Below, in pieces: positions 6,643 to 52,398 of a DNA stretch of 64,000 nt. The DNA is from a candidate division FCPU426 bacterium. GTDB lineage: Bacteria > Oederibacteriota > PGYV01 > Palsa-1178. The notes beneath the pieces are model-generated. The model saw only the letters and a program-made list of their open reading frames with translations. It was not told the origin of the DNA and ran no database searches. Where the stretch lies: assembly GCA_003159495.1 (NCBI GenBank), contig PLPI01000055.1, positions 3,275 to 67,274 on the forward strand. The letters run 5' to 3'. Numbering within the stretch: the first letter of the stretch is position 1; every line of letters starts with the position of its first letter. The position numbers were made by a program, and so were the translations under genes.

Positions 6643-6659
6643 CGGCATGGTATGTGCTT
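6643..6659 (+). promoter_or_regulatory. Candidate sigma-54 (-24/-12) promoter for the flgB operon
   Basis: Sequence CGGCAT-ggtat-GTGCTT with exact GG-N10-GC spacing, 39 nt upstream of the first ORF. It shares the motif with the sites at 25051 and 34394. Confidence 0.35.
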
Positions 6660-20880: not shown

Positions 20881-22668
20881 ATGTTAAATAAAAAATATTA
20901 CAAAGGCAGCGACCTTTATTCGGACGGAGACGTTGAAAATGATATATTGAAGATTGTAAGGGAAGGTAAGGATCCTGAAAAGGCAATAGCCGAAGACAGC
21001 CGCTGGCCCATACTTTATCATCTTACTTCCACCAGGGAAAATTTGCTTGAATGGATACCTTTTGAAAAGAACGCAAGCCTGCTCGAAATAGGCGCGGGTT
21101 GCGGCGCGCTTACCGGACTGCTGTGCGAGAAACTCGGCAAAGTGACGGCTGTCGAGCTTTCGGCCAGAAGGGCGGAAATAACAAATGAAAGGCTTAAAGA
21201 TAAAAAAAACCTTGAAATATACGCGGGAAACCTGAGCGACATTGAATTCGGGGAAAAGTTCGATTATATAACTCTCATAGGCGTGCTTGAATATGCCGGC
21301 AAGTACAAGAACTCGAAAAACCCGTATATGGATTTTCTTAAGGACGTCAAAAAACTTCTTAAGGATGATGGAACGCTTATTATTGCCATTGAAAATAAAT
21401 TCGGGATGAAGTATTTTTCCGGCGCGCGTGAGGACCACACCGGAGCGGCTTTTGACGGCATACAGGGTTATACGCGCAGTGACGTGAGGACTTTCGGGAA
21501 AAACGAGCTGATCAGCCTTCTTAAAAGTTCGGGTTACGGTGAAAGTCATTTTTATTACCCCATGCCGGATTACAAATTACCGGGCGTGATATTTTCGGAT
21601 TTCCGCCCGCCGAAAATCGGTGAGATAGGCAGGACGTTTTCTAATTTCGACAGGGATAAAGTGTCGGTTTTCAGCGAATGCCTCGGGTTTGAGAACGCGG
21701 TTAACAGCGGCGAATTCGGATTTTTTGCGAATTCATTTCTCGTTTTTTGCGGCAAAAAACCGGCCATTGATTTTGTCAAATACAATAACCTCAGGATGCC
21801 CGCATTCCAGGCAGCGACGGAGATCATGAGCGGCGGGGCGGCCTCGACAAAGAGAAGCTTGCGCGGGGACGGGGAAAAACACATATCGCGCATAGTACAA
21901 AATTTCTCAAAACTCGGGGAAAACCACGGTGATTTTAAAATAGCGGGATGCAGGTTTGAAGCGGGAAAAGCGGTTTTTGAGTACATAGAGGGCAGGTCGC
22001 TGGATGAACTGCTCTATGAAAACGCCGTAAAAAGGGATAAAAACGGTTTTTTCGGACTGCTTGCGGAGTTTAAAAAGAATTTTGATTCGCTGGACAGGTC
22101 GAAAATAAGCAATTTTAAGGCTGACGTCGGTTTTACGGAAATATTCGGGGATACGGCGATAGATTTTGACTTCGATTCCTTCAAGGTATCGGACATAGAC
22201 ATTATATTTGACAATATTATCGTAAAAGACGGCGCACAGGTGTTGATTGACTATGAGTGGGTTTTTGAAACCGTACTGCCGGTAAATTATATTTTGTTCA
22301 GGTCAATATTCACCTTCTGGAACAAATACGTGGAGCATCTGGACGGTTTTGTCACGCCCGAGGAAATATTTAATTTTTTTGGAATAGCCTTTAAAGAGAT
22401 ACCGTTTTACGGGCAGATGGAAAGAAAATTTCAGGCATTTGTCCATGATCAGCCAAGGCTCTCAAATCTGGCGGGTTTTCAGAAAAGAAGGGACGAAATA
22501 AAAATTTACGACATGGTAAAACATTCGGGCTACCTGGAAACGCGCGTGAAGGCGCTTAATATGGAAATGGAAAAGACAAGAAAGCTGATATGTGAAAAAG
22601 AGGATATTATAGAAAAACTCAGGGTAGAGCTTGACGGAATGAAAAAACAGCCGGAAAAGACCGCTTAG
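20881..22668 (+). CDS. Class I SAM-dependent methyltransferase fused to a ~350-aa C-terminal domain of unknown function (possibly kinase-like)
   Basis: Motif I LEIGAGCGALTGLL and post-I VAVELS in residues ~60-220. C-terminal region has a DIIFDN(x16)IDYEW arrangement and a terminal coiled coil. Confidence 0.7.
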   Translation: MLNKKYYKGSDLYSDGDVENDILKIVREGKDPEKAIAEDSRWPILYHLTSTRENLLEWIPFEKNASLLEIGAGCGALTGLLCEKLGKVTAVELSARRAEITNERLKDKKNLEIYAGNLSDIEFGEKFDYITLIGVLEYAGKYKNSKNPYMDFLKDVKKLLKDDGTLIIAIENKFGMKYFSGAREDHTGAAFDGIQGYTRSDVRTFGKNELISLLKSSGYGESHFYYPMPDYKLPGVIFSDFRPPKIGEIGRTFSNFDRDKVSVFSECLGFENAVNSGEFGFFANSFLVFCGKKPAIDFVKYNNLRMPAFQAATEIMSGGAASTKRSLRGDGEKHISRIVQNFSKLGENHGDFKIAGCRFEAGKAVFEYIEGRSLDELLYENAVKRDKNGFFGLLAEFKKNFDSLDRSKISNFKADVGFTEIFGDTAIDFDFDSFKVSDIDIIFDNIIVKDGAQVLIDYEWVFETVLPVNYILFRSIFTFWNKYVEHLDGFVTPEEIFNFFGIAFKEIPFYGQMERKFQAFVHDQPRLSNLAGFQKRRDEIKIYDMVKHSGYLETRVKALNMEMEKTRKLICEKEDIIEKLRVELDGMKKQPEKTA

Positions 22669-22849
22669 ATGAAAAAATCTTGGCGAACATTGATAACCAG
22701 GTCGATATGATGAGATACTGTCAAGAGTAGTGTGTAAATTGATTTAGCCATAATAAGACAACTCGCCGGTTTCTTTCGAATTTAATTCAACAATCTGCAA
22801 AAAAATATGATGATACCGGATTGATTATAATATACAACAATGATAAAAT

Positions 22850-22934
22850 GGCACTGTCGAAAAACCGGTTGCACGGTTTATCCTGGATATATGCGCGGGA
22901 TCAAGCAACATTGGCGGGGTTTTCCGAAGGTACC
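22850..22934. repeat. Hairpin-forming inverted-repeat element, copy B (85-bp core)
   Basis: GGCACTGTCGAAAAACCGGTTGCACGGTTTATCCTGGATATATG...GGATCAAGCAACATTGGCGGGGTTTTCCGAAGGTACC aligns with the two ends of copy A at ~85% identity. Confidence 0.6.
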
Positions 22935-23158
22935 ATAAGGGAGCGATTGTTTGTAAAATGTGCAAAAGATAATGGCGGAAAGATGTTTTAGTCTGGCGGG
23001 CGGGTCTGCTGGATGACCGATATTTAGAAAAAAATGTAAGGTGTTCGTCTGCGTTGTGGATCTTGGCGTGCATGACCCGGTATTCAAAAAGCCATAACAG
23101 CCAAACTTATGGTATTATAAGCCGTAGTTTTTCGCAATATCAAAAGGTGGCTCTAAAA

Positions 23159-24901
23159 ATGACGATAAGTATTTTTGCGGCAATATCATTTTTCACGGCA
23201 ATAGCAGCTTTTCTAACCGGTATTTATATTTACCGGCAGGATCCCAGAAACCCGATGAACCAGACTTTTATGTACGGTTCGGCCGTTGTTGCATGGTGGG
23301 CCCTGTGCGAATTTCTTTACCGCACGGCGCCGGATGCTGTTTACGCCGCATTCTGGATAAAAATGTGTTTCGTATGGCCGTTCGGGCTCGCGTTCTTCCT
23401 TGACGCGATCATATATTTCCTGGATACGGATGCAAAAATAAAAATGATGCCGCGCATGCTTGCTTTATACGCGCCCGCGGTTGTTATTGCCTTAATACAC
23501 CTTTTTTTTACGGGGCTGTACTTCGGGCCGCCGGTAAAAATGTGGTGGGGATATACGGTATCAAAAGGGCCGCTTCTGGGTGTTATAAATTTTTATTCCA
23601 TCTTACTTTTTGCCGTTTCAGCGGCCTGGCTGCTCGTGTTTGCGTTAAAAACAAAAGACGCTGTAAAAAAGAGGCATGCTTTTGTAATAGCGGCCGGGCT
23701 TTTAACGGCCACCCTTATGGCATTTTCTGTCGGGATACAGGAGATTTTCTTTAACCGGCAGACTCCGGAACTCTCGACGGCGGCGATACTCGCGGGAATA
23801 ATTATAATCGTATTTGGCTCGGTTAAGCACGGGGTTTTCTCGGTAAATGTTAAGAATTCAGCCGGGCACATATTAAACGTAATGAAAGAGGGGTTTGCAC
23901 TTACGACCCCGGATATGCGCATCAAAACTGTAAATGAATTTTTCTGCCTGATGACGGGCTACCTTATGGAAGAAGTGGAAGGCATGAATCTGGGGTCATT
24001 TGCTGGGCTTAATTCCGATGGAAGAGGAGAATTTGAAACCCTGCTGAAAAGAAAAGATGCGGGCCTCATGCCGGTCGGCGCATCGCACACTGTTGTGAGG
24101 GATAATCGCGGCAATATTGCGGGGCATATTTTTGTCTTCGCGGATATTACGGATAAGAAGAAAAAACTTGAAATAGAGGCCGAATACAGGAAATTGATCC
24201 AGGGTGAGGCATCTAAAAATGAGATTATCAACGTTATTGGCCATGAGATGAAAACTCCGCTTACATCAATAAAGGGATTTTCATCGCTTCTGATAAGCGG
24301 GGCCGCGGGACGGTTGAATGAAAACCAGAGGGAATACACGGAGGCAATCAAGGCTAATGCGGACAGGCTGGTCGAAATGACCTCGGATTTTATAGATATA
24401 ATCAGGATATCGTCCGGCAGGATGCCTCTCGTGAAAGAAAAATTCGACATGTCGGCGGTGGTGAATAATGTTTCGGACAAATTTAATTACATTCTTGCGG
24501 GTTCCGGGATAACCGTTACCGCCGGAAAAAAAGCCGTTTGTATGGTATTCGGGGATGAAAAGAGGCTTGAACAGGCCGTTTCAAATATGGTGCTTAACGC
24601 GGTAAAATTTTCGCAAGACGGTGACTGCGTGAAAATTTATTGTTCCGCCGCCGTGGGGACCGCAGCCGCGCAGGTATGGGTGGAGGATACTGGCAGGAAA
24701 TTGTCTCCGCAAGAGGTCAATGAAATATTCGCCGGACTGCTTATAATAAAAAATAATCGTTCCACAAAAAAGAACCACGGGACACCCTTTGCGATGACCA
24801 TTTCCAGGGCCATTGCCGAGTCACACGGAGGCAACCTGGTTTACAGAGATAACGGAACAAAAAAGGGCAACACGTTCGTAATGGAAATACCGCTGAGTTA
24901 A
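23159..24901 (+). CDS. Polytopic membrane sensor histidine kinase (multi-TM, PAS, HisKA, HATPase_c with degenerate G1/G2 boxes)
   Basis: Six to seven predicted TM helices, H-box IGHEMKTPL and N-box NAVKFS. G1 is DTGRK (not DxGxG) and G2 is GTPFAM (not GxGLGL). RBS aaggtgg before ATG 23159; the ORF is open from 23054. Confidence 0.7.
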   Translation: MTISIFAAISFFTAIAAFLTGIYIYRQDPRNPMNQTFMYGSAVVAWWALCEFLYRTAPDAVYAAFWIKMCFVWPFGLAFFLDAIIYFLDTDAKIKMMPRMLALYAPAVVIALIHLFFTGLYFGPPVKMWWGYTVSKGPLLGVINFYSILLFAVSAAWLLVFALKTKDAVKKRHAFVIAAGLLTATLMAFSVGIQEIFFNRQTPELSTAAILAGIIIIVFGSVKHGVFSVNVKNSAGHILNVMKEGFALTTPDMRIKTVNEFFCLMTGYLMEEVEGMNLGSFAGLNSDGRGEFETLLKRKDAGLMPVGASHTVVRDNRGNIAGHIFVFADITDKKKKLEIEAEYRKLIQGEASKNEIINVIGHEMKTPLTSIKGFSSLLISGAAGRLNENQREYTEAIKANADRLVEMTSDFIDIIRISSGRMPLVKEKFDMSAVVNNVSDKFNYILAGSGITVTAGKKAVCMVFGDEKRLEQAVSNMVLNAVKFSQDGDCVKIYCSAAVGTAAAQVWVEDTGRKLSPQEVNEIFAGLLIIKNNRSTKKNHGTPFAMTISRAIAESHGGNLVYRDNGTKKGNTFVMEIPLS

Positions 24902-25050: not shown

Positions 25051-25067
25051 CGGCATACTTCGTGCAA
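25051..25067 (+). promoter_or_regulatory. Candidate sigma-54 promoter for fliQ-fliR-flhB-flhA
   Basis: Sequence CGGCAT-acttc-GTGCAA with GG-N10-GC spacing, 50 nt upstream of fliQ. Confidence 0.35.
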
Positions 25068-26170: not shown

Positions 26171-27238
26171 ATGGCAGATTCGAGCAAGACGGAAAAACCG
26201 ACGCCAAAGAAGATAAGAGAGTCCAGGGAAAAGGGGCAGTCCGCCAAAAGCAGCGAGGTTTCGTCCGTAATACAGATAATAGGATTTCTGTTAGTAGTGT
26301 TCATGTCTTCCCGGACAATGTTGTCAGTAATGATTAAGAGTTTTTATTCCTCCATAGAAGAGGCCGGGAGCGGAAAGGTCCTTGATTTTGACAGGGCGCA
26401 TGCTCTGCTGACCGGGGGAGCGATGGCCGTGTTTTCCGCAATTACTCCGGCATTAATAACTCTTCTTGCGCTCGCGCTTGTTTCGGGTGTGGCCCAGTCG
26501 GGATTTTCATTCGCGGAAAAGGCTCTCTCCCCGAATTTTGGGAAGATAAACCCGCTGAACGGATTTTCACGCCTGTTTTCATCCCGTTCATGGGTTGAAC
26601 TTCTGAAATCCATATTCAAGATCGGTGTTGTTTTTGCAATATTATACAACGTATTCATGACGGAAAAGGACCGCATTATGATGCTGTCCGGTACGGATGT
26701 TTACACGGTGCTGAATTATTCGGCCCATCTTTTTACGGAAATAATAAAAAAAATAGCCGTTTTTCTTATAGCGCTTGCAATTGTGGATTATATATGGCAG
26801 AAACATGATTTTATGTCGAACCTTAAAATGAGCAAACAGGAAGTCAAGGATGAAATGAAACAGACCGAAGGCGACTTGAGAACCAAGGCAATGATAAGAA
26901 ACTGGCACAAACGCAAGATCAAGCACGCGATGATGGAGTCGGTAAAAAAGGCTACTTTTGTCACGGTAAACCCTACGCATTATGCGGTTGCGGTAAAATA
27001 TGAACGCGGCATGAGGGGGCCAAAACTGCTTGCCAAGGGGGCGGACCTGATGGCCAAAAGAATAAGGGAACTTGCCAAAGAATACAAGGTGCCAATAGTC
27101 AAAAACGCGGAACTTACCCGTTCGATTTATTTTTCCACAGAGGTGGGCAGATTCATCCCGCCAAAACTATTTAAGGCGCTTGCAAAAGTGCTTGTGTTTA
27201 TATACAGGATGGAAAGGGAGAAAAAAAATGGAAGATAA
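26171..27238 (+). CDS. flhB: Flagellar export apparatus protein FlhB
   Basis: Four N-terminal TM segments; NPTH autocleavage motif present (VTVNPTHYAV). Confidence 0.9.
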   Translation: MADSSKTEKPTPKKIRESREKGQSAKSSEVSSVIQIIGFLLVVFMSSRTMLSVMIKSFYSSIEEAGSGKVLDFDRAHALLTGGAMAVFSAITPALITLLALALVSGVAQSGFSFAEKALSPNFGKINPLNGFSRLFSSRSWVELLKSIFKIGVVFAILYNVFMTEKDRIMMLSGTDVYTVLNYSAHLFTEIIKKIAVFLIALAIVDYIWQKHDFMSNLKMSKQEVKDEMKQTEGDLRTKAMIRNWHKRKIKHAMMESVKKATFVTVNPTHYAVAVKYERGMRGPKLLAKGADLMAKRIRELAKEYKVPIVKNAELTRSIYFSTEVGRFIPPKLFKALAKVLVFIYRMEREKKNGR

Positions 27239-29315
27239 AAAACCGGTAAAACAGGGCGGAGCCACGGTGGCCGTGATGATAGTCAGCCTGATAATGATAA
27301 TGATCATACCCCTGCCCCCTTCGCTTATAAGCTTTTTGATTGTTATAAACTTTACACTTTCACTGCTTATACTCATGATAACCCTGTATATAGGCAATCC
27401 CCTTGAATTCTCGGTTTTTCCCAGCGTGCTGCTGGTAATGACCCTGCTTGACCTGGCGCTTAATATATCCATAACCAGGATGATACTTTTGAGCGGCAAC
27501 GCCGGCTCGGTCGTTTCGGCTTTTGGCGAGTTTGTCGTCGGCGGGAATGTGGTGGTGGGGCTGGTTGTATTTATAATAATAACAATCGTCCAGTTCGTGG
27601 TCATAACAAAAGGCGCCGAGAGGATAGCCGAGGTGGCGGCCAGATTTACCCTGGACGCCATGCCGGGAAAACAGATGTCCATCGACGCTGACTTGTCCGC
27701 GGGGCTCATAACGAACGAGGAGGCAAGGCGCCGCAGGAGGGAAGTTGAGGACGAGGCCGACTTTTACGGGGCAATGGATGGAGCCTCAAAATTTGTCAAA
27801 GGGAACGTCATTGCCGCAATAATAATAATATTTATAAACATTCTTGGCGGCATGGTTATGGGATATTTAAGGGGCGGGATGTCCCTGCTTGAAATAACAA
27901 AAATATACACAATCCTGACCATAGGCGAGGGGCTCGTGGCCCAGATACCGGCACTGGTGGTATCCATGGCGATGGGCGTGATCGTTACCCGCGCGGCGTC
28001 AAAATCAGACCTGGGGTCTGATTTTACCGCGCAGATATCAATGCAGCCAAAGGCGATAAAAATAGTAGCCGGATTCCTGTATGTGTTCGCCGCGGCCGGC
28101 CTTTTTACAAAATTACCGGTGTTCCCGTTCCTTTTAATGGCCATTCTGATGCATATAGTGTCCTCAAGGTTGAAAACGCAGCCGGAAACCTCAAAAGGAA
28201 GGGATGCCAGGGATGATAAAAAAAAGGACGGAGTCCCCCCGCTGTACAATATTATAAAAGTTTACCCGATAGAGCTTAACATAGGTTACGGGCTTTTGTC
28301 CCTGATAGACGAGAACAAAAAAGGAAATCTTCTGGACCGGCTTAAGCTCGTGCGCGAGAATGTTTCAAAAGAGCTCGGGTTCCTTCTGCCGCTGATAAGG
28401 GTTAAGGACAACAGCGAACTTACCACGAACCAGTACGCAATCAAAATAAAGGGCAATGAGGTGGCACAGGGGGAAATACTCATCGGCCATTATCTTGCAA
28501 TGACTTCGAACAACAAGGAGACAAAAGTAAAGATAAACGGCCTCCCGACGCAGGAACCGACATTCGGCCTGCCGGCAATATGGATAATTGAAAAAGAGAG
28601 GTTAAAGGCCGAAACCGCCGGGTATACGGTGGTTGATTCCGTGTCGGTTCTGGCCACACATCTTACGGAAGTCATAAAGACATACGCCCACGAAGTGTTC
28701 ACAAGAAAAGAACTCACGCAGATGATAGATATCATAAAAGCGGACAACCCGTCGCTTGTCGAGGATCTTATCCCGAATACGCTCTCCGCGGGTGATGTCG
28801 AAGCCGTGATAAAAAATGTCCTGAAGGAGAAGATTCCGGTGCGCGATATAGAGACCATACTTGAGGCGCTTGCCAACAACGGCAAGAAGATAAAGGATAC
28901 CGGGGTCCTGACGGAAATCATCAGGGAGGCTATATCCCGCTCGATATGCAGCCAGTTCAACAACGGAAAAAACCATCTTACCGTCGTTGCGATGGATCCA
29001 AACCTTGAAAAGTTAATAACGGAAAATGTCAGGCAGGTGGACAATGACGTGGTATATTCAATCGAACCGTCGCTTATGCAGAAAATAGTTAAATCCATAG
29101 GCTCTGCGGTGGAAAAACTCCTCGCCGTGAGCCCCATGCCGCTCGTGGTGTGTTCCCCGAATGTCAGGATGCATTTAAAAAAGCTCACCGAAAGGATAAT
29201 CCCGAACCTGAACATAATTTCCTACAATGAGATCGACCCCCTTTATAACGTCGAATCCGTTGCGATAATCGGGCTGCCCGAGGGGGCCGTGTCAGACAAG
29301 AATGTTATGGATTAA
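27228..29315 (+). CDS. flhA: Flagellar export apparatus protein FlhA
   Basis: ~695 aa with an N-terminal TM domain and a large cytoplasmic domain. Start chosen at MEDKK with a good RBS; the ORF is open from 27180. Confidence 0.9.
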   Translation: MEDKKPVKQGGATVAVMIVSLIMIMIIPLPPSLISFLIVINFTLSLLILMITLYIGNPLEFSVFPSVLLVMTLLDLALNISITRMILLSGNAGSVVSAFGEFVVGGNVVVGLVVFIIITIVQFVVITKGAERIAEVAARFTLDAMPGKQMSIDADLSAGLITNEEARRRRREVEDEADFYGAMDGASKFVKGNVIAAIIIIFINILGGMVMGYLRGGMSLLEITKIYTILTIGEGLVAQIPALVVSMAMGVIVTRAASKSDLGSDFTAQISMQPKAIKIVAGFLYVFAAAGLFTKLPVFPFLLMAILMHIVSSRLKTQPETSKGRDARDDKKKDGVPPLYNIIKVYPIELNIGYGLLSLIDENKKGNLLDRLKLVRENVSKELGFLLPLIRVKDNSELTTNQYAIKIKGNEVAQGEILIGHYLAMTSNNKETKVKINGLPTQEPTFGLPAIWIIEKERLKAETAGYTVVDSVSVLATHLTEVIKTYAHEVFTRKELTQMIDIIKADNPSLVEDLIPNTLSAGDVEAVIKNVLKEKIPVRDIETILEALANNGKKIKDTGVLTEIIREAISRSICSQFNNGKNHLTVVAMDPNLEKLITENVRQVDNDVVYSIEPSLMQKIVKSIGSAVEKLLAVSPMPLVVCSPNVRMHLKKLTERIIPNLNIISYNEIDPLYNVESVAIIGLPEGAVSDKNVMD

Positions 29316-29383: not shown

Positions 29384-30796
29384 ATGGACGTAAAAGCGTA
29401 TAAGATCCTGATAATAGACGATGACCCGGAGATAGTCTGGTACATCAGCAGCCTGATGAAAAAATTCGGGTATGAATTTGAAAGCTCTCCGAACGGCGAG
29501 GACGGGCTGGCAAAAATAGATAAAACATCATTTGATCTTGTCATACTTGATATCACCATGCCCGGGTTGTCGGGCGTCGAGGTCATGAAGCGCATGAACG
29601 AGCGGGGGTTTAAGTCGCCGGTAATAATCCTTTCAGCATATGAAAATGTCAATTTTGCGGTCGAGACGACAAAGCTGGGGGCCTATGATTACCTTGTAAA
29701 GCCGGTTGATGAGGAAAAATTAAGGGTGACGGTCCAGAATGCCCTGAAAACAAGGGAACTGGAAACCGAGGTCAAAATACTGCGCAATAAGATAAAGGCC
29801 GACGACCCTGACGGGGAAATAATAACCGGCCATCCGATTTTTATAAAAACAATAGAGACTGCAAAAAAAATATCGGGCTACGAGGTTTCGGTGCTGATCC
29901 TTGGAGAATCGGGGACGGGCAAGGAACTAATAGCAAGGACGATACACCGCAACAGCCAGAGAAAAGACGGCGCCTTTGTTTCCATAGACTGCGCCACGCT
30001 GCCTGACAACCTGGTGGAATCGGAACTCTTCGGACATGAAAAAGGGTCCTTCACCGGGGCCACCGAGGCGAAAACAGGAAGGTTTGAACTGGCCAACGGA
30101 GGATCTCTTTTCCTCGATGAGATAGGGAACCTTTCCCTGAATGTGCAGAAAAAACTTTTAAGGGTGATCCAGGAAAGGAAAATAGTGAGGATAGGCGGCA
30201 AAAAAACCATCGATCTTGATATCCGCATTATAACCGCCACTAATGTGGACCTGGCTGAAGCCGTTAAAAAAGGGGAATTCAGGGATGATCTGTTTCACAG
30301 GATAAACGAGTATTATCTTGAACTGCCGCCGCTAAGGATGAGGGGGGACGACATTCTGCTTTTAGCCGGAAGGTTCATACTGAAATACAACTTAAAATTC
30401 GGCAAAAATGTCAAAGACATTGATGACGAGGTAAAACAAATATTTACGGACTATTCGTGGCCCGGCAATGTAAGGGAGCTTGAAAACACGATAAAGCACG
30501 CTATTTTAATGGCTGATGCTGTTATCACAAAGGCAAACCTCCCCAAAAGCCTTACTGACAGGGTTATGATGGGAGAGGCCGCGGATTATTCCGGGAATCC
30601 GGAGGGCGCGGATGCAGGGACCGACGGAGAAATAATGTCTTTGAAAGACGCCTGCGGCAGGGCCAGGGAACACATAGAAAGGGAAATGATAATGAAGGCC
30701 CTTAAAAAGTTCAAGTGGAACAAAACGAAGGTGGCCGAGGCGCTTAAGGTGGATTACAAGACACTTTACAATAAAATGAAAGAATACGGGCTTTAA
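29384..30796 (+). CDS. Sigma-54-dependent response regulator (REC, AAA+ sigma-54 activator, Fis-type HTH)
   Basis: REC acidic pocket IIDDDPE...LDITMP. Walker A GESGTGKE and a GSFTGA (GAFTGA-type) loop. C-terminal HTH WNKTKVAEALKVDYKTLYNKM. RBS gaggagg. Confidence 0.85.
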   Translation: MDVKAYKILIIDDDPEIVWYISSLMKKFGYEFESSPNGEDGLAKIDKTSFDLVILDITMPGLSGVEVMKRMNERGFKSPVIILSAYENVNFAVETTKLGAYDYLVKPVDEEKLRVTVQNALKTRELETEVKILRNKIKADDPDGEIITGHPIFIKTIETAKKISGYEVSVLILGESGTGKELIARTIHRNSQRKDGAFVSIDCATLPDNLVESELFGHEKGSFTGATEAKTGRFELANGGSLFLDEIGNLSLNVQKKLLRVIQERKIVRIGGKKTIDLDIRIITATNVDLAEAVKKGEFRDDLFHRINEYYLELPPLRMRGDDILLLAGRFILKYNLKFGKNVKDIDDEVKQIFTDYSWPGNVRELENTIKHAILMADAVITKANLPKSLTDRVMMGEAADYSGNPEGADAGTDGEIMSLKDACGRAREHIEREMIMKALKKFKWNKTKVAEALKVDYKTLYNKMKEYGL

Positions 30797-30809
30797 GGAG
30801 GCACAGGAA

Positions 30810-31004
30810 ATGGCATTTATAACATTTTTCGCGCCGCCGGCGGCGTTTTTAGCGTGCGTCATCCTTGGAATACTGTTCCATAAATCGTGGGGAGGGGTGC
30901 TTGCAGGATCGGTAGTATTTTATGCCCTGACTTTTATACTGATGGCTGTGATAAATAAAATAACGGCTGACAGGATGCCTGTAAACAGCGAGGTGGAAAA
31001 ATGA
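30810..31004 (+). CDS. Small two-TM membrane protein of unknown function
   Basis: 64 aa, strong RBS aaggagg, 4-bp overlap with fliA. Confidence 0.4.
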   Translation: MAFITFFAPPAAFLACVILGILFHKSWGGVLAGSVVFYALTFILMAVINKITADRMPVNSEVEK

Positions 31005-31738
31005 ACGACGATGAAAGGATAATGTGGGAAAGGTTCAAACAAACGAAAAGCGCCGCGGCCAGGAACGAAATAGCCAAAAAATATATAAATCTGGTGCGGT
31101 TTGTGGTTGAAAAGGTCTATTTTGCATCCTCGCTGGCCAGCAAAGACGACCTTTTTAACATCGGCGCCATGGGGCTGCTGGAAGCTGTGGAGAAATACGA
31201 CACGGGACGGGATATAAAATTCGTAACATACGCCTATTTCAGGATATACGGCAGTATAATGGACTATTTAAGAAGCGCGGATTGGGCTCCCAGGTCCGTC
31301 AAGGAAAAATCATCAAAACTTGAAAAAGCCTACAGGGCATTAATGGAACGCGGCATTTCAAACCCCACGGACGAGCAGGTCGCCGGGGAGATGAAAATGG
31401 ATATGAACTCATATTACAGGCTTATAGACGGCCTGCATGTCAACAAGGTTTATTCGATAGACGAATTTTTTTCCGCTGACGGCGCGGGCTGCCCGGTATG
31501 TGCCGATGAAAACTCCGGAAACACCGAGCGCAGGGAACTGCTGGCGCGCATAATAGACACGGCCCTTGACAGCAGGGAACAATCGGTGCTGGCGATGTAT
31601 TATTATGAAGGTTTCACCCTCAAGGAAATATCAAAGTCAATGGACCTTACTGAGGCGAGAATCTCCCAGATACACGGGCAGGCCATCTCCAAGATAAAGG
31701 CGCAACTATCCATTGAAAAAGTGCTGAATATATTTTAG
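31001..31738 (+). CDS. fliA: Flagellar sigma factor FliA (sigma-28)
   Basis: Sigma-70 regions 2 and 4: YINLVRFVV..., DLFNIGAMGLLEAVEKYD, LKEISKSMDLTEARISQI. Confidence 0.8.
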   Translation: MNDDERIMWERFKQTKSAAARNEIAKKYINLVRFVVEKVYFASSLASKDDLFNIGAMGLLEAVEKYDTGRDIKFVTYAYFRIYGSIMDYLRSADWAPRSVKEKSSKLEKAYRALMERGISNPTDEQVAGEMKMDMNSYYRLIDGLHVNKVYSIDEFFSADGAGCPVCADENSGNTERRELLARIIDTALDSREQSVLAMYYYEGFTLKEISKSMDLTEARISQIHGQAISKIKAQLSIEKVLNIF

Positions 31739-31815
31739 AATTAGGCAAGTACGGCAGCGTGCCTGACAGGGGGTTTAAAAACGGGGCGGCCGAAAACAGG
31801 CGGGAAAAGGAAAAT

Positions 31816-34254
31816 ATGCAAAAAAAAATTCTTATAGTCGACGATGAACCCGATATTGTAAAAATAATCAAGATAATACTTGAGATAGAGCCGGGACAGT
31901 ATGAAGTGCATACCTCCAGCGACGGCAGGGACGCCCTGAAAAAGATATCCGAGTTCAGGCCGGATCTTATTCTCCTTGATGAAATGCTGCCTCTTTTAAA
32001 AGGCAATGAAGTGGCGAAAATAATCAAAAACGACCCCGAACTCAGAAAAATACCCGTCATAATGGTAACCGCGCGGCACCTGCAAAAGGACAAGGTGGAC
32101 AGCCTGGAAAACGCGATGGTGGACGACTATATAACAAAGCCTTTTGAGCCGGAGGAACTGCGCGCCAGGATAAAGGCCATGCTCAGGATTAAAACACTGA
32201 CCGACGAGCTTGAGGCCGCAAACCGGTCCATGCAGGAACTGTATTCAAGGGCGGCCGACACGGCCGCGATGCGCAAGAGAATGCTTGACGAGGTGCTCAG
32301 GGGCATGCCGTTTGCCGTAATGCTGACCGACGGGGAGATGCAGATACTTGAGGCGAACTCAAACCTGTATGAGATGCTTTCAATCGACCAGGGGCGCATA
32401 ATAGGCGCTGATGCGTCGGCCCTGTTTGGCACCAGGATAAAACGTGATGTAACCCCGACCATGGTGCAGTTTTTTGCCCCCAAGAAAGGAAAATTATACC
32501 TGGAAATCAGCTGCGTGGAAATGGATGACGGGCTGCGCTGTATACTTGTCGTAAATGACAGGACGCGCGAACGCCTTATGAACAACATACAGGTGCTTTT
32601 CAGGCACACTCTCAATGAATCAACGGGAAATACAAACACCGAATTTTTCAAAAAACTGCTCGGCGAGGTGAAAAGTTATTTTTATGCCGAAGCCGGCGCG
32701 GTTTATATCTTTGACGGGGACAACATTTACAAGGGCGCAATGGCGGAACAGGGCGGGGCGGAGAAATTTTCGGACGCGGAATTGAAGGTTTACATGCCGC
32801 AGGTAAAAAAAGCGATGCATCAGCGGCCCGCTTATATATCCGGGGCCGATATAAAAAAGTACATGGAGGACCCTTCCGGCCATGTGACGAATATTGTGGC
32901 CATACCCTTAAAGGGCATGGAGATAAAACTCGGCATCCTTATGCTTTACAATTCACCCGGCATAGAAACATCATTTGAATATAAGATAGAAATTATAGAC
33001 TTTATCGTAAGTATTGTGAGCGTGCTTTATAAGAACATGATGCTTGTCGGCAAACTCAACAAGGAAAATATACTTGTCAGGAGCCTTATAAATATTTCGC
33101 AGATAATAAATTCGACCATGGAATACAACAAGCTCATCGGAATATTCGTTGAGATAGTTTCCCAGTTTATAGGATCGGAAACAGTGGGGCTGTTTTTGTT
33201 CAACAAAAAAACACACAACCTTGAGCACATACATTCCAGGGGTTATTCCAGGGAGCGGATGGAACTCTATTCGAAGTCGCTTATCAGCAGGGATGAAATA
33301 GAGAATTACGGCAGGGATGAAGCCGCGGCCCTTGTGAACAATGAAAAATTTGCGCCGTTTAATACCCCGGGGCTGACAAAGGTTTTCCCGCTGAAATTAA
33401 GGTATAAGCTCATAGGCTATGTCAGCGTTGAAAAAGCCGAAACAGACCCGATGCATATGGAAATGCTTGCCCTTTTGATGGAGCATGTCGCCAAATCAAT
33501 TGAGAACTCATACCTTTTCGACCAGATATTAAAGCAGAACGAACAGCTTATTAATACTACGGAAATGCTGCGCAAGACGGAACAGAGGCTGATTATAAGC
33601 GAACAGCTTGCCGGTATGGGGAAGTTTGCCGCGGCAGTTGCCCACGAGATCAGGAATCCGCTCACCATTATGCTCGGCGCGGTCCAGAATTCAAGGAACG
33701 CAACTGTGGAGGAAAAAGATTCCATACTGGAGCATCTGGAGGGGAAAATAATCGATATTGACCACATTTTGAAACAGATGATGGAATACGCCAAACAGAT
33801 GAAGATAACCATAGAGGAATTTGACCCGGTAGCTTCGATAGGAGAAACCCTTAATTTTATAGGACACAAGGCCAAAGTTGAGAATGTCAGGATTAAACAG
33901 GACCTGAAAGTGGCGTCAAAGGTGAAGGCCGACAGGATGTGGTTTGAAAGGGTGCTTTTAAACCTTTATATGAACGCAATGGATGAAATGAAAGGCGGCG
34001 GGGAACTTACCGTGTCCGCCTCCGAGGACGCCGAGAACATTATTTTAAATATCGGAGATACGGGCAGCGGAATACCCGAAGAGATAAAAAACAAGATATT
34101 CGAGCCGTTCAACACATCCAAAAAAACCGGAACCGGGCTCGGGTTGTACAATGTGAAAAAGGCAATAGAACTGCAGGGCGGAAAAATAGACTTTATTACT
34201 TCAAAGCAGGGCACTGTTTTTACCATACACCTGGCAAAGTGTGTACCCGAATAA
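31816..34254 (+). CDS. Hybrid sensor kinase: N-terminal REC, PAS/GAF, HisKA, canonical HATPase_c
   Basis: REC ILIVDDEPDIV...LILLDEMLP; H-box AHEIRNPL; G1 DTGSGI; G2 GTGLGL. The ORF is open from 31759. Confidence 0.75.
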   Translation: MQKKILIVDDEPDIVKIIKIILEIEPGQYEVHTSSDGRDALKKISEFRPDLILLDEMLPLLKGNEVAKIIKNDPELRKIPVIMVTARHLQKDKVDSLENAMVDDYITKPFEPEELRARIKAMLRIKTLTDELEAANRSMQELYSRAADTAAMRKRMLDEVLRGMPFAVMLTDGEMQILEANSNLYEMLSIDQGRIIGADASALFGTRIKRDVTPTMVQFFAPKKGKLYLEISCVEMDDGLRCILVVNDRTRERLMNNIQVLFRHTLNESTGNTNTEFFKKLLGEVKSYFYAEAGAVYIFDGDNIYKGAMAEQGGAEKFSDAELKVYMPQVKKAMHQRPAYISGADIKKYMEDPSGHVTNIVAIPLKGMEIKLGILMLYNSPGIETSFEYKIEIIDFIVSIVSVLYKNMMLVGKLNKENILVRSLINISQIINSTMEYNKLIGIFVEIVSQFIGSETVGLFLFNKKTHNLEHIHSRGYSRERMELYSKSLISRDEIENYGRDEAAALVNNEKFAPFNTPGLTKVFPLKLRYKLIGYVSVEKAETDPMHMEMLALLMEHVAKSIENSYLFDQILKQNEQLINTTEMLRKTEQRLIISEQLAGMGKFAAAVAHEIRNPLTIMLGAVQNSRNATVEEKDSILEHLEGKIIDIDHILKQMMEYAKQMKITIEEFDPVASIGETLNFIGHKAKVENVRIKQDLKVASKVKADRMWFERVLLNLYMNAMDEMKGGGELTVSASEDAENIILNIGDTGSGIPEEIKNKIFEPFNTSKKTGTGLGLYNVKKAIELQGGKIDFITSKQGTVFTIHLAKCVPE

Positions 34255-34393
34255 AATATTGAACGCCTTCGCCCGGTATTATTTTGTATCCCGGGCCGGC
34301 CCGGCCGCCTTGTTTCCATAATTTATGGAAGAAAACCCCTGTTATCATCCGCGATAAACCGTAAAAACCCTTATTTTAAATGAAAAAATCATC

Positions 34394-34410
34394 CGGCACG
34401 TTTTGTGCTA
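34394..34410 (+). promoter_or_regulatory. Candidate sigma-54 promoter for flgF-flgG-flgA-flgH-flgI
   Basis: Sequence CGGCAC-gtttt-GTGCTA with GG-N10-GC spacing, 43 nt upstream of flgF; the best of the three matches to TGGCAC-N5-TTGCW. Confidence 0.4.
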
Positions 34411-38366: not shown

Positions 38367-38394
38367 TTAACATTCTTTCGGAGCGCGCCGATAC
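38367..38394 (+). promoter_or_regulatory. Weak sigma-28-like promoter upstream of flgM
   Basis: TTAA-N16-GCCGATAC compared with the TAAA-N15-GCCGATAA consensus. Confidence 0.3.
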
Positions 38395-38419: not shown

Positions 38420-39022
38420 GTGCGAAAAAGGAGTGTGGACATCATGGGAATCAGCATAGATAAGGTTGGCATGGCGCAAAATGCGCCTGCACCGGCAGCC
38501 GCGGCGCAGGCAGTTGCCGCGCAACAGCCCGCACCAAAGCAGGCAGTTTCGCAGCAGGTTGTTCAGCAGGCGGCGCAGCAACCGGCCATAACACAGCAGG
38601 CCATGCAGCAACCGGCGGTACAGGGGCCGGACGCAAGTCAGGAACAGGCGGATGTAACGCAGAAAAAACCCGCGGAAAAGGCCGCCCCGGAAAAGGCCAG
38701 GAAGTATTACACGGCCAATGACCTGAAAACAGCCACAGGAATGAGCAGTGACATACTGAAACTTAATGATGACCTTCGAAATATCGCCAAACAGAGTTTT
38801 CAGTACCAGACGGATATAGATGAAATAAAGAAAGAAATTGACGGAAGCGACAGCAATGATCCGGCAAAGCTTGAAAGGGATACCGCCGAACTGAGTTCCC
38901 TTAAGGCGCAGCTTAACGAAGCTGATACGGACAGAATGAGGAAAATTAATGAAATCAGGACCAAGTACGCCGGGGGAACATATAAGGTTAACAGCATGGA
39001 TGTTGTGAATAGCTGGGATTAA
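38420..39022 (+). CDS. flgM: Anti-sigma-28 factor FlgM-like, with a long Gln/Ala-rich N-terminal extension
   Basis: The C-terminus INEIRTKYAGGTYKVNSMDVVNSW matches the FlgM G-x-Y-xV motif. 200 aa versus a typical ~90 aa. Confidence 0.55.
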   Translation: MRKRSVDIMGISIDKVGMAQNAPAPAAAAQAVAAQQPAPKQAVSQQVVQQAAQQPAITQQAMQQPAVQGPDASQEQADVTQKKPAEKAAPEKARKYYTANDLKTATGMSSDILKLNDDLRNIAKQSFQYQTDIDEIKKEIDGSDSNDPAKLERDTAELSSLKAQLNEADTDRMRKINEIRTKYAGGTYKVNSMDVVNSWD

Positions 39023-39040: not shown

Positions 39041-39562
39041 ATGGAAACGACGCCCGCTCCGGAAAGCTGCATAGAGAACGCATACAGGTGTTTTGACGAG
39101 ATAGCCAATCTCTACAAGAAACTCCTTGACTTGTCCATGAAGGAAAAGGAATTGATAATATACGAGGACCTTAAAACCCTGACAACGACGATAATAGAAA
39201 AAGAAGAGCTTATGAACGCCATAAGCGTACAAAAGGACGAGGTTAAGGAACATATGGAAGGCGTGAAGCTGGGATACGGCTACCAGCAGGGCGAACAGGT
39301 GCCTGTGATGAGGCTCATAAAACTTTTTCCCGGGGACTGGACAAACAAATTTGAGATGGTTTTCGCCCGCCTCAGGGAATATACGTCAAGCATAAGGACC
39401 GTTGCAATGGTCAACAAACGGCTTATCGCGGATACGGTAAAGTTCATAAATTATGTGGTAAATTTTATGAAAAAAGGTGACGGGGAAATGACTGTATATT
39501 CCCACAAGGGATTTGCCGTTAAGAAATCGAACGAACTTAATTTTCTTGACGTCCAGCTTTAG
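39041..39562 (+). CDS. flgN: FlgN-like chaperone for FlgK/FlgL
   Basis: 173-aa helical protein between flgM and flgK. Confidence 0.5.
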   Translation: METTPAPESCIENAYRCFDEIANLYKKLLDLSMKEKELIIYEDLKTLTTTIIEKEELMNAISVQKDEVKEHMEGVKLGYGYQQGEQVPVMRLIKLFPGDWTNKFEMVFARLREYTSSIRTVAMVNKRLIADTVKFINYVVNFMKKGDGEMTVYSHKGFAVKKSNELNFLDVQL

Positions 39563-41953: not shown

Positions 41954-42421
41954 ATGGCAAACGGTGTGGTTGAAACGACGGAAAAAAGCAGGGAAATAAA
42001 TTTTGTGAAGCCGGTGCTGGGGTTTGAGGAGAGCAGGATATACTCCTTTCAGGAATATAAGCCGGGAAGCCCTTTTATGTGGATGATTTCCGCCGGGGAC
42101 GAACGGCTCAGGTTTATTGTAATTAATGTGTTTGACTTTTTCCCCGGCTATGATTTAAAATTAAGCAACGACGACAGGGAACTTCTGGGCTTTGATGAAA
42201 AAAGCGCGCTTGTATTCGGGCTCGTGTCGATCCCGGAAAATCCGGAGGAGATGACGGTGAATCTGGCGGCTCCGGTCGTTGTTAATTACAAAAAAATGGC
42301 CGGCGGGCAATTTGTGAACCTGATTGATGGATATTCACTGAAAGAACCGCTTGTTAAAAGAGGAGAAGCAAATGCTGATTCTGTCAAGGAAAACGGGAGA
42401 AAAGATAATAATAAACGGTGA
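41954..42421 (+). CDS. fliW: Flagellar assembly factor FliW
   Basis: 155 aa; INFVKPVLGFE...RLRFIVINVFDFFPGYD matches the FliW family. Confidence 0.8.
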   Translation: MANGVVETTEKSREINFVKPVLGFEESRIYSFQEYKPGSPFMWMISAGDERLRFIVINVFDFFPGYDLKLSNDDRELLGFDEKSALVFGLVSIPENPEEMTVNLAAPVVVNYKKMAGGQFVNLIDGYSLKEPLVKRGEANADSVKENGRKDNNKR

Positions 42422-42605
42422 CATCGAAATAACCATAGCCGAACTGAGGGGCTCCGAGGTGCGCATCGGCATATCGGCCCCGAAGAATGTATCAATATAC
42501 AGGGAGGAGGTGTACAGAAAAGTGCAGCAGGAGAACGTGAAAGCGATGGTTGAAAAAACGCCGGATTTAACGAAGGTGGAACTGAAGGGGAAAAAGAAAA
42601 AATAA
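42372..42605 (+). CDS. csrA: Carbon storage regulator CsrA
   Basis: MLILSRKTGEKIIINGDIEITI... is canonical for CsrA. The start overlaps the end of fliW; the ORF is open from 42351. Confidence 0.9.
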   Translation: MLILSRKTGEKIIINGDIEITIAELRGSEVRIGISAPKNVSIYREEVYRKVQQENVKAMVEKTPDLTKVELKGKKKK

Positions 42606-42697
42606 AATTTAAGTTTTTGAAAGAGAAAGACGAAGATAAAGTGTAAGAGAAAAACAACAACTGCTTCGATGGCCACGGAGCAAGCGACGCCGAAAGA

Positions 42698-42738
42698 CCC
42701 GGAATGGATTCCGGGAAAAAAACATCACGGAGGATGAA
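42698..42738 (+). promoter_or_regulatory. Predicted CsrA-binding sites in the flagellin 5' leader
   Basis: Hairpin CCCGGAA-tgga-TTCCGGG presents GGA in its loop. A second GGA lies in the SD (acGGAGGAtgaatcATG). Confidence 0.45.
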
Positions 42739-42740
42739 TC

Positions 42741-43562
42741 ATGGTTATCAATCACAACATCAGCTCGATGATCGCTCTCACGAACTTGAACAACACGGAC
42801 AGTGCGATGCAGTCTTCCCTCACGAAGCTTTCTTCAGGCGACAAAATTGTTACGTCAGCAGACGATCCGGCGGGTATGGCAATTGCTCAGAAAATGTTGG
42901 CCCAGATGAATTCTCTGACACAGGCCAAACAGAACACATCGGACGGCCTTTCCCTCATGCAGACAGCGGACGGTTCTTTAAACACGGCAACCGACATCCT
43001 GCAGAGGCTAAACACCCTGGCAGTAAGGTCGGCGAACGACGCGACTCTTACGACCTCGGACAAAGGGCTGATACAGAGCGAAGCCAACCAGCTCACATCG
43101 GAACTCACCAGAATGGCATCTACGGTACAGTTCAACACAAAAAATCTGCTTGACGGAAACTTCACCAATGAACAGCTTCAGGTAGGCACGGGCTCTGCCT
43201 CATCGGACCAGATCGACTTAAGCATAACCGGCGTCAGCGCGAAAACACTTGGTGTTGATTCGCTGGATTTCACCACGGTTGCGGGATCCGAGTCCGCGAT
43301 TGATTCAATAACATCGGCCATCAACCTTGTGTCCGCCAACAGGGGCCAGATAGGCGCTGTTATGGACAGGCTTCAGGAGACAAGCAGCAACATCGACATC
43401 GAGAACACGAACATGACGGCATCCGAATCCAACATCATGGATGTTGACATGGCATCGGAAATGTCAAACTTCACAAGGCTGCAGGTACTCCAGCAGTCGG
43501 GCACTTCCATGCTGGCGCAGGCAAATTCACTGCCGCAGAGTGTTCTTAAACTGATGCAGTAA
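42741..43562 (+). CDS. fliC: Flagellin (minimal D0-D1 type, 273 aa)
   Basis: MVINHNISSMIALTNL N-terminus and LPQSVLKLMQ C-terminus; no hypervariable domain. Confidence 0.9.
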   Translation: MVINHNISSMIALTNLNNTDSAMQSSLTKLSSGDKIVTSADDPAGMAIAQKMLAQMNSLTQAKQNTSDGLSLMQTADGSLNTATDILQRLNTLAVRSANDATLTTSDKGLIQSEANQLTSELTRMASTVQFNTKNLLDGNFTNEQLQVGTGSASSDQIDLSITGVSAKTLGVDSLDFTTVAGSESAIDSITSAINLVSANRGQIGAVMDRLQETSSNIDIENTNMTASESNIMDVDMASEMSNFTRLQVLQQSGTSMLAQANSLPQSVLKLMQ

Positions 43563-46748: not shown

Positions 46749-47111
46749 ATGGAAGCGTTTGGCGGCAAGGATAACAGGAAGCACAAGAGAGCGAACATAA
46801 CGGCCGAGGTGGTTTATAAATACGCCGATATACTCGATTATGGCGGCGACCTTAAAACGCAAAAATCCGGGCGCAGCCTCGATATAAGCGTTTCAGGGAT
46901 TCAGATGGTTGTTGATGAGGCCATGTTTCCGGGACAGGTGATAAAAATGGATATACACCTGCCGCACGAGGAAGTGCCCCTGACAACCTTCGGCAGGGTT
47001 GAATGGTGCAGAAAGGACGAGGCGGTCATAGGTATCTACAGGGTCGGGGTTAATTTTATGCTCATTGACGCGGATCATACGAGCCTGATAAGGAAAATAA
47101 CCGGAGAGTGA
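46749..47111 (+). CDS. PilZ-domain protein (c-di-GMP receptor candidate)
   Basis: RKHKR (RxxxR) and DISVSG (DxSxxG) motifs with the correct spacing; 120 aa. Confidence 0.75.
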   Translation: MEAFGGKDNRKHKRANITAEVVYKYADILDYGGDLKTQKSGRSLDISVSGIQMVVDEAMFPGQVIKMDIHLPHEEVPLTTFGRVEWCRKDEAVIGIYRVGVNFMLIDADHTSLIRKITGE

Positions 47112-48125: not shown

Positions 48126-48329
48126 TTTACCGTAACTATATTGCCGCATTGCAAAACAACTCCGCAAGAACATGGAAAAGATTCCATGTTTTATGAAAAA
48201 AGTTTCCTTCCAAAATAGATCGCCTGATAATATCCCTTTAAAAACTGGACTTTTTACGGCATGGATTGTGCTTTAATTATTGGAGCCATAGCATGTTTTT
48301 TATGTGCCGGGCAATCCGGAGGAAAAGGG

Positions 48330-51604: not shown

Positions 51605-51711
51605 AACAACGGGGAAATTTTAAGAATAAAATCCAATTTTCCGATAATATTAAAAATCTTGCCGGTTGAAAATAGGCGCCGAATCTGTTATTATGTGTCA
51701 AATAACAGGCG

Positions 51712-52398
51712 GTGAATATGGATATTTCCACAAGGCTCATGTCAATTACCATGGAATTTGTCTTTATGCCGGTTCAGGCCGGGGATAAAAAACTGCGCGG
51801 CATATTTGACTCGGTTTCGGAATCTCACTCGATTACATCGTTTTCAACCCTGCCCGACGGAAGCACCGTAATGTCCACCAAGGAAGAAAAAAACAACCTT
51901 TCCCGTTACAGGATACTGCGGGACAGGGTGGTTATAACCTACGAATTCTGCTCAAATTCCATAAACTATTACAGCGCCCTCGCTTCGGATTTTTTAAGCG
52001 TCTTTGCGAAAACGGCCGGGGTTTCCCTGATTCTTATGCACAGTATTATAATAAGGAAGCTGGTGAATTTAAGGCAGTTTGAGGACGGCAGGGATTACCT
52101 TATAAAAAAGGCCCTGTCGCTCACCGACGAGGACCTCAAGGTTTTTGCCAGGCCGCTGCATGTGATAGGCACGAGGATGTTTTTTCCGGCGGTGGATCAG
52201 GGGCTGTCGGCTTATGATATAAAAGTGGAATCATGGGGCGAGGATACAAGGTCCATATTTATCGAGTGTGCCGGCATCTATTCCGCGCCGGCCGACATTG
52301 GAAAAGACGTATCTGTCATAAGCATTGATACGGATAAAACAGATGATTTCATATCAAACAATATTCTTGGATTCCTGAAACAATTCGGCGGCAGGTAA
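51712..52398 (+). CDS. Hypothetical protein
   Basis: 228-aa ORF with no motif I recognise. Confidence 0.4.
   Translation: MNMDISTRLMSITMEFVFMPVQAGDKKLRGIFDSVSESHSITSFSTLPDGSTVMSTKEEKNNLSRYRILRDRVVITYEFCSNSINYYSALASDFLSVFAKTAGVSLILMHSIIIRKLVNLRQFEDGRDYLIKKALSLTDEDLKVFARPLHVIGTRMFFPAVDQGLSAYDIKVESWGEDTRSIFIECAGIYSAPADIGKDVSVISIDTDKTDDFISNNILGFLKQFGGR

Follow-up and report, generated by a model that had tools for sequence, protein, structure and literature searches.

What is understood of the control of flagellar genes by two-component systems acting through sigma-54 comes from Proteobacteria and Campylobacterota, where such control is accompanied by the proteins FlhF and FlhG. Geobacter FgrM (Ueki et al. 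2012, cited in PMC8844916) is reported to be an RpoN-dependent flagellar master activator governed by a multicomponent His-Asp phosphorelay with several kinases. The spirochaetes studied so far use, to our knowledge, sigma-70 and sigma-28 for their flagellar genes. Among the flagellum-associated two-component systems are FlgS/FlgR of Campylobacter and Helicobacter, FlrB/FlrC of Vibrio and FleS/FleR of Pseudomonas, in which an NtrC-type regulator paired with a cytoplasmic kinase activates rod and hook genes from sigma-54 promoters, and FliA and FlgM then control the late genes (PMC7064773, PMC3930126). According to Burnham et al., such systems co-occur with FlhF/FlhG (PMC7064773). Here we analyze a stretch of 64,000 nucleotides, which we call the window, from contig PLPI01000055.1 of a candidate division FCPU426 bacterium (assembly GCA_003159495.1). 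In it, genes for an NtrC-family response regulator, a 64-residue protein, FliA and a receiver-controlled histidine kinase follow flhA, and we consider it fairly probable that these four genes, placed in the flagellar superoperon where flhF and flhG would be expected, constitute a sigma-54 control module of the flagellum that operates by the scheme proposed below.

The module works like FlgSR, FlrBC or FleSR, yet it lies outside those families. It shares with them a cytoplasmic kinase encoded together with the regulator, as well as sigma-54 sites before rod and hook genes. In contrast to those systems, sigma-54 promoters are here also found ahead of fliA and of the genes for the MS ring and the export apparatus, whose control in Vibrio falls to the master regulator FlrA. 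With fliA under sigma-54, the arrangement recalls the class II flhA operon of Vibrio. Geobacter FgrM resembles the proposed scheme in being a single sigma-54 activator needed for flagellum synthesis, and it is reportedly fed by a relay of several kinases, but the phylum and the organization of the cluster are different. Further differences to FlgSR, FlrBC and FleSR are that the regulator has no equivalog among theirs, that the kinase has an N-terminal receiver and a PAS-GAF-GAF sensor, and that the module occupies the flhF/flhG position, whereas the known systems co-occur with FlhF/FlhG (PMC7064773).

In spirochaetes and Firmicutes, the flagellar superoperon normally continues past flhA with flhF-flhG-flgV-fliA, the last gene encoding sigma-28 (PMC11607428). 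From flgB to flhA, the gene order of the window is that of this superoperon. Naming by Pfam and NCBIfam delineates a single flagellar supercluster on the plus strand, at about 6.6-46.6 kb of the 64 kb, which begins with a FlgN-like open reading frame (ORF), flgB, flgC, fliE, fliF, fliG, an ORF comprising FliH and FliI, fliJ, fliK and flgD, and proceeds with flgE, flbD, motA, motB, fliL, fliM, fliN, an ORF at the fliO position and fliP. Between fliP and fliQ lie a 595-residue S-adenosylmethionine methyltransferase and then a histidine kinase with seven transmembrane segments (7TM) and a PAS domain, followed by fliQ, fliR, flhB, flhA, the regulator, the 64-residue ORF, fliA and the receiver (REC) kinase. 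The 3' part consists of flgF, flgG, flgA, flgH, flgI, flgM, flgN, flgK, flgL, fliW, csrA, the flagellin gene, fliD and fliS, so that the module has flhA before it and flgF after it. Pfam recognized neither SRP54-type GTPases nor MinD/ParA ATPases among the plausible gene ORFs of at least 180 residues in the window. The window thus contains neither flhF nor flhG, and in relatives they were also not found within 8-10 kb on either side of the module. Since the superoperon normally continues with flhF-flhG-flgV-sigma-28, it is apt to speak of a slot after flhA, as the initial annotation did in claiming that it is filled by the four genes named above, all of which we found in place.

Eight distinct genomes, all from the same uncultured clade, share the order flhA-regulator-small ORF-fliA-REC kinase (the window, L014, L015, L006, L008/L016, L010, L045 and L047; the L045 contig is cut inside the regulator gene, so that its flhA is not in view), while the identity of the regulator across these genomes ranges from 86% down to 53%. 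The kinase gene is directly followed by flgF in six of the eight; in L006 other genes spanning about 3.3 kb intervene, and the 10 kb downstream in L047 contain no flgF. The exact regulator protein of the window is also encoded on a contig of a metagenome-assembled genome (GCA_003142155.1) and on several metagenome contigs. In L011/L012, a regulator orthologue with 60% identity is directly followed by a 357-residue kinase orthologue of REC-DHp-CA layout, with no fliA between them. Taken together, the REC kinase accompanies the regulator in nine genomes, that is, in every genome examined. The fliP/fliQ and kinase/flgF junctions vary between genomes, holding unrelated cargo or nothing. The former is a hot spot for cargo (window 20881-24901; L006:2471-5368; L047:591-3067): it harbors a 7TM kinase and a short-chain dehydrogenase in L006, genes for LOG-like, TspO and OYE proteins in L047, and is empty in L014 and L010. 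The 595-residue methyltransferase is unique to the species of the window.

By its sequence, the regulator is a member of the NtrC family, with a receiver pocket, an AAA+ domain and a C-terminal helix-turn-helix (HTH) of the Fis type. Its ATG is preceded by a GGAGG ribosome-binding site, and the protein matches the Pfam families Response_reg (4e-28), Sigma54_activat (2e-67), AAA_lid_14 and HTH_8 (9e-14). The receiver residues D12/D13, D56, S84 and K106 are invariant in eight orthologues, across which Walker A (GESGTGKE), Walker B (FLDE), the arginine finger R300 and the GAFTGA-type loop G[SA]FT[GN]A, in the window GSFTGA, are also conserved. The closest curated families in NCBIfam are AtoC, NtrC and ZraR, the top match being AtoC with 431.6 bits against a cut-off of 714; no equivalog match was obtained to the named flagellar activators FlgR, FlbD, FlrC and FleR.

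Scanning for the textbook sigma-54 pattern TGGCAC-N5-TTGC with up to two mismatches was uninformative (42 matches, 58 expected). A lineage-specific form, CGGCAY-N5-KTGCW, which we read from three intergenic regions, has four exact matches in the 64 kb, compared to 0.99 expected, all of them on the plus strand, with a start codon about 50-75 bp downstream (P1 to P4, Table 1). In a weight matrix made from 12 sites, eight of them from relatives, the four score 20.4-22.8 bits and the next best site in the window 14.1. The position of P3 is kept in six genomes, at -49 to -67 from the ATG of flgF, although the flanks have diverged, and in L045 a sigma-54 site is located just before flgF. Four genomes have the motif before fliQ; in L008 it is found before fliP instead. 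A control locus from Selenomonadaceae (L046) has no such site. The three sigma-54 promoters that had been claimed earlier are thus recovered as outliers with conserved positions (20-23 bits versus 14), and a fourth, at 48257, is added. The first gene behind P1, before flgB, is the FlgN-like ORF (6696-7151, plus strand; PF05130, 1e-8). P4 precedes a gene for a tetratricopeptide repeat (TPR) protein with a hydrophobic N-terminus and a C-terminal TPR (48331-49613, with the true ATG at 48331) and one for a leucine-rich repeat (LRR) protein of 664 residues, the region with both genes extending over 48172-51604 on the plus strand. Judging from their promoter, the two proteins are candidates for new members of the flagellar regulon.

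Upstream of P2, the tandem 16-bp palindromes have conserved half-sites and variable inner bases in the window, L006, L014 and L015, and the palindrome recurs in L008, where it precedes the fliP promoter. The exact form, ATGGA-N6-TCCAT, has only two copies in the 64 kb (24997 and 48172), each with a sigma-54 promoter downstream. Present in this or the everted form at three of the four promoters, it is likely to be the binding site of the regulator; such palindromes are the expected signature of sites for a dimeric activator with a Fis-type HTH. Between the upstream palindrome and the -24 element, most of these promoters contain a CCCTTATTTT / CCTTTAAAA-like box (at about 25030, 34370, 48235 and 6615, and at matching places in relatives), which may be a site for a bending protein.

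No sigma-54 site was found directly upstream of the regulator, fliA or kinase genes in seven loci, the gaps from fliQ to the kinase measure 4-77 bp, and a hairpin, possibly marking the end of an operon, comes after the kinase; the three genes are therefore most simply read from P2. A generic scan for sigma-70 promoters and terminators gave nothing decisive on basal promoters. The location of regulator, fliA and kinase within the sigma-54 fliQ operon implies a self-activating loop.

From the observed gene content, the intact catalytic residues, the conserved synteny, the promoter motifs and the sites upstream of them, we infer a circuit of the following kind. The soluble kinase would integrate signals through its PAS and GAF domains, be controlled through phosphorylation of the receiver at its N-terminus, in the manner of LvrB (see below), and phosphorylate Asp56 of the regulator. 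The phosphorylated regulator would bind the ATGGA-N6-TCCAT sites, 40-70 bp upstream of the CGGCAY-N5-KTGCW promoters, and together with RpoN-polymerase activate four operons, namely flgB to fliP, fliQ to the kinase, flgF to flgI, and the TPR/LRR pair. As the second operon comprises regulator, fliA and kinase, activation would be self-reinforcing and would supply FliA. FlgM would hold FliA until the hook-basal body is complete, whereupon FliA would drive the flgM-flgN-flgK-flgL operon.

A two-tier cascade from sigma-54 to sigma-28 had been predicted in the initial annotation. The promoters, the upstream sites and the intact regulator agree with this prediction in silico, but the proposed circuit feeds back on itself and so is no mere ladder of two steps, and a late tier can be seen for the flgM operon only. 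In a scan with the canonical sigma-28 pattern, three allowed mismatches yielded 221 matches, which is too noisy, and only intergenic sites conserved across genomes were retained. The sigma-28-like site before flgM, also part of the prediction, is supported by its conservation in four genomes (the window, L015, L014 and L008), in which its flanks have diverged. Another sigma-28-like site, TAAG-N15-TCCGATAA, is found at 51621-51647 (plus strand) in the gap before an ORF of 228 residues (51712-52398), which matches no Pfam family. Directly upstream of the flagellin gene are fliW and csrA (41954-42745, plus strand), and the flagellin leader contains a GGA-loop hairpin of the CsrA type as well as a GGA at the ribosome-binding site, which suggests from the sequence that flagellin is under CsrA/FliW control.

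The kinase ORF covers 31759-34254 and can be read from a GTG at 31759 as 831 residues, although the ATG at 31816 is the likely start, giving a protein of 812 residues. It matches the Pfam families Response_reg (1e-24), HisKA and HATPase_c and, having no membrane segment by hydropathy, is soluble. In the alignment of its orthologues, D10, E11, D55, K108, H610 and the G-boxes are invariant. The middle part of about 450 residues has only sub-threshold PAS matches in the window protein (PAS_8, E = 0.002) and no Pfam match to GAF, whereas the L008 orthologue matches GAF_3 with 29.2 bits (cut-off 27). An AlphaFold2 model computed from seven orthologues, with a predicted local distance difference test (pLDDT) score of 66, shows the secondary-structure order REC / long helix / PAS / GAF-like / GAF / DHp / CA, where PAS spans residues 165-250, the GAF-like part, at low confidence, 295-386 and GAF 437-540. 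Foldseek searches with this model had full-length PAS-GAF-PHY-kinase phytochromes as first matches (E = 4e-20, but TM-scores of just 0.17-0.24), followed by ZraS and LvrB. Of the earlier description of the protein as a REC-PAS/GAF histidine kinase (HK), REC and HK are thus established by Pfam, while the PAS/GAF content, weak in the window protein, is supported indirectly, through GAF_3 in L008, the model and Foldseek. Few proteins share the middle region: among 5.8 billion searched, only nine clusters match over the full length, after which the score drops from 895 to 210 bits, the latter for receiver-only matches. In L001, a metagenome assembly of the same species, the gene call splits the REC kinase into two genes, of 512 and 306 residues (L001:12376-14871), due to either a frameshift variant or an assembly error.

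The prototype of receiver-controlled histidine kinases is LvrB of Leptospira (PDB 8vc9), in which phosphorylation of the receiver frees the catalytic domains and switches the kinase on (PMC13269768). Besides being matched by it in Foldseek, LvrB resembles the window kinase in having an N-terminal receiver ahead of DHp and CA, and the 357-residue orthologue of L011 has exactly its REC-DHp-CA layout, with a single signalling helix connecting receiver and DHp. In the window kinase, by contrast, about 450 residues of PAS-GAF-GAF separate receiver and DHp and there is no single-helix join. The target of LvrB is also of another kind, namely an anti-sigma factor (LvrC) instead of a sigma-54 activator.

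Whether the regulator is fed by the REC kinase (31816) or the 7TM kinase (23159) had been left open in the initial annotation, and by sequence the question is now largely answerable in favor of the REC kinase. We favor it because it is present with the regulator in every genome examined, L011/L012 included, because AtoS and ZraS, which its core matches best, pair with AtoC and ZraR, and these in turn score best with the regulator in NCBIfam, and because the 7TM kinase is dispensable cargo with a core of the WalK/PhoR type. Specifically, the core of the REC kinase has its best matches to AtoS and ZraS in NCBIfam and to ZraS (9jfj, 9e-36) in the PDB, with the H-box HEIRNPL, whereas the core of the 7TM kinase is of the WalK/PnpS/PhoR/VanS type, with the H-box HEMKTPL. 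Also, the 7TM kinase is found only in the window, L015 and L006, and is not in the cluster in L014, L008, L010 and L047.

At most, the 7TM kinase would feed the N-terminal receiver of the REC kinase. This receiver, whose best matches are to receivers of the PhoB, PleD, MtrA and YycF type, is PhoB/WalR-like, and the 7TM kinase could therefore act on it. The result would be a three-step relay from the 7TM kinase over the receiver of the soluble kinase to the regulator, which would extend our reading of the module rather than exclude it, and which we regard as possible, if doubtful. The pairing of the kinase and receiver classes is coherent, receiver phosphorylation activates the prototype LvrB (PMC13269768), and the 7TM kinase sits in the cluster in three genomes; on the other hand, it is not there in the four genomes named above, and with the unrelated cargo that the fliP/fliQ junction carries elsewhere, its co-location could be accidental.

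Several observations weigh against the regulator-kinase pair being a flagellar control module. The flagellar activators FlbD and FlgR scored only 327.7 and 315.1 bits with the regulator, each against a cut-off of 750, which does not make it an equivalog of either. The weight matrix for the sigma-54 sites was partly trained on the window's own four, P1 has no recognizable ATGGA/TCCAT site upstream, and RpoN is not encoded within the 64-kb window. Since the flagellin gene is without a clear sigma-28 site, the late tier is seen only for the flgM operon. That kinase and regulator match at the level of families argues from their classes and is no test of specificity, and the support as a whole is in silico. 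Finally, the regulator-kinase pair of L011 (L011:1073-6888) has no flagellar genes in view, and the sigma-54 site adjoining it (L011:3907) precedes Peptidase_M6-like and UPF0164 genes.

These last findings, as well as the closest curated families of the regulator being AtoC, NtrC and ZraR and not flagellar activators, would fit a pair that is a mere passenger serving non-flagellar genes, with the flagellar sigma-54 promoters being served by an activator encoded elsewhere. We find this quite improbable, given that the position of the module is constant in eight genomes while neighboring junctions gain and lose cargo, and that it lies inside a sigma-54 flagellar operon carrying a conserved predicted enhancer. 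It is very unlikely that the 7TM kinase, encoded in the same cluster, on the same strand and upstream of P2, is the direct kinase of the regulator, leaving the REC kinase to another pathway or to a role mainly as phosphatase or phosphate sink: it is not conserved with the regulator and its DHp class is that of the partners of OmpR-type regulators, whereas the REC kinase accompanies the regulator throughout, even in L011, outside a visible flagellar cluster. That flagellar synthesis responds to light through a phytochrome-like REC kinase, as its top Foldseek matches with the domain order PAS-GAF-PHY-kinase could suggest, seems to us extremely improbable, and we rejected its identification as a bacteriophytochrome, as no cysteine is invariant in the alignment of seven orthologues, the TM-scores are low for a model of limited confidence and the likeness is one of domain order only.

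The fourth component of the module, the 64-residue protein, has its hydropathy peaks at about residues 3-23 and 30-50 and no family in Pfam or NCBIfam. All eight genomes have an ORF of 54-64 residues at this position; the seven sequences aligned all show the same two peaks, with G20 and K25 as the only invariant residues and a tail of 6-16 residues. FlgV, a flagellar basal-body protein with two transmembrane segments, is encoded between the flhF/flhG module and sigma-28 (PMC11607428), and the small protein is similar to it in having two membrane segments and a gene directly upstream of fliA in the superoperon. It is, however, only 54-64 residues long and has neither the long polar tail of FlgV nor its conserved C-terminal peptide, and there is no arginine in its second segment, where FlgV has a conserved one. 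Comparison by hhalign with a 128-residue Selenomonadaceae protein that has two transmembrane segments and the same gene position, but is not verified as FlgV, gave a probability of 0.2%. Identity with FlgV was thus not established by hhalign and the conserved features of FlgV are not present; based on the location of its gene, we treat the small protein as a positional analogue of FlgV.

Elsewhere in the cluster, a 639-residue ORF (10748-12667, plus strand) contains a FliH domain (residues 74-197) and a FliI ATPase (343-629) with no stop between them and looks like a FliH-FliI fusion. A second FlgN is encoded at 39041-39562. The 120-residue ORF behind fliS (46749-47111, plus strand) has, judged by eye only, a PilZ-like signature, RxxxR ... 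DxSxxG. The coordinates of the features discussed are collected in Table 1.

Table 1. Genes, predicted promoters and upstream sites of the control module and its surroundings, in window coordinates.
Feature	Position	Strand	Evidence
Sigma-54 promoter P1, before FlgN-like ORF (6696) then flgB	6643-6658	+	pattern, weight matrix
7TM-PAS histidine kinase, variable cargo at the fliP/fliQ junction	23159-24901	+	Pfam HisKA_7TM, PAS_9, HisKA, HATPase_c
Two tandem palindromes ATGGA-N6-TCCAT, 8-bp spacer; predicted enhancer upstream of P2	24973-25012	+	conserved half-sites
Sigma-54 promoter P2 (CGGCATACTTCGTGCA), before fliQ-fliR-flhB-flhA-regulator-small ORF-fliA-kinase	25051-25066	+	pattern, weight matrix
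flhA, final export-apparatus gene ahead of the module	27228-29315	+	TIGR01398 FlhA 794 bits, cut-off 772; equals 695-residue L001 gene call
NtrC-family sigma-54 activator response regulator (REC-AAA+-HTH_8), 470 residues	29384-30796	+	Pfam; conserved residues
64-residue protein with two hydrophobic segments	30810-31004	+	hydropathy; 4-nt overlap with fliA
fliA (sigma-28)	31001-31738	+	TIGR02479 FliA/WhiG 199.6 bits, cut-off 189.6
Soluble receiver-controlled kinase REC-PAS-GAF-GAF-DHp-CA	31816-34254	+	Pfam, AlphaFold2 secondary structure, Foldseek, hydropathy
GC-rich hairpin behind the kinase stop, possible operon end	34294-34306	+	consensus scan only
Everted half-site pair TCCAT-N5-ATGGA upstream of P3	34315-34329	+	in window, L014, L015
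Sigma-54 promoter P3, before flgF-flgG-flgA-flgH-flgI	34394-34409	+	pattern, weight matrix, conservation
Sigma-28 promoter TTAAC-N15-GCCGATAC before flgM (38444-39022)	38367-38394	+	conserved in four genomes
Exact palindrome upstream of P4	48172-48187	+	pattern scan
Sigma-54 promoter P4, before TPR and LRR genes	48257-48272	+	pattern, weight matrix

A more far-reaching version of the proposed circuit can be formulated. In it, the clade would have lost FlhF/FlhG, the whole superoperon, including the MS-ring and export-apparatus genes and fliA, would be under one self-activating sigma-54 regulator driven by the receiver-gated PAS-GAF-GAF kinase, and the membrane protein of 54-64 residues would report the assembly of the export apparatus to the kinase. 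In this full form we consider the proposal rather unlikely. If it were true, the loss of FlhF/FlhG in the presence of a single sigma-54 regulator would be an exception to the co-occurrence with FlhF/FlhG that has been reported for flagellar two-component systems. Should the clade further belong within the Spirochaetota, we would know of no earlier sigma-54 flagellar hierarchy there.

What is new in the module as we read it is the arrangement of a well-known type of flagellar control, with no new mechanism implied. The same control logic is assembled from different parts, namely an AtoC/ZraR-like regulator and a receiver-gated multi-sensor kinase, at the flhF/flhG position of a spirochaete-type superoperon. 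Its value is mainly comparative: the locus offers a concrete candidate regulon, with four promoters, a predicted 16-bp binding palindrome and two candidate members (TPR and LRR), and a test case for receiver-controlled kinases that feed sigma-54 activators.

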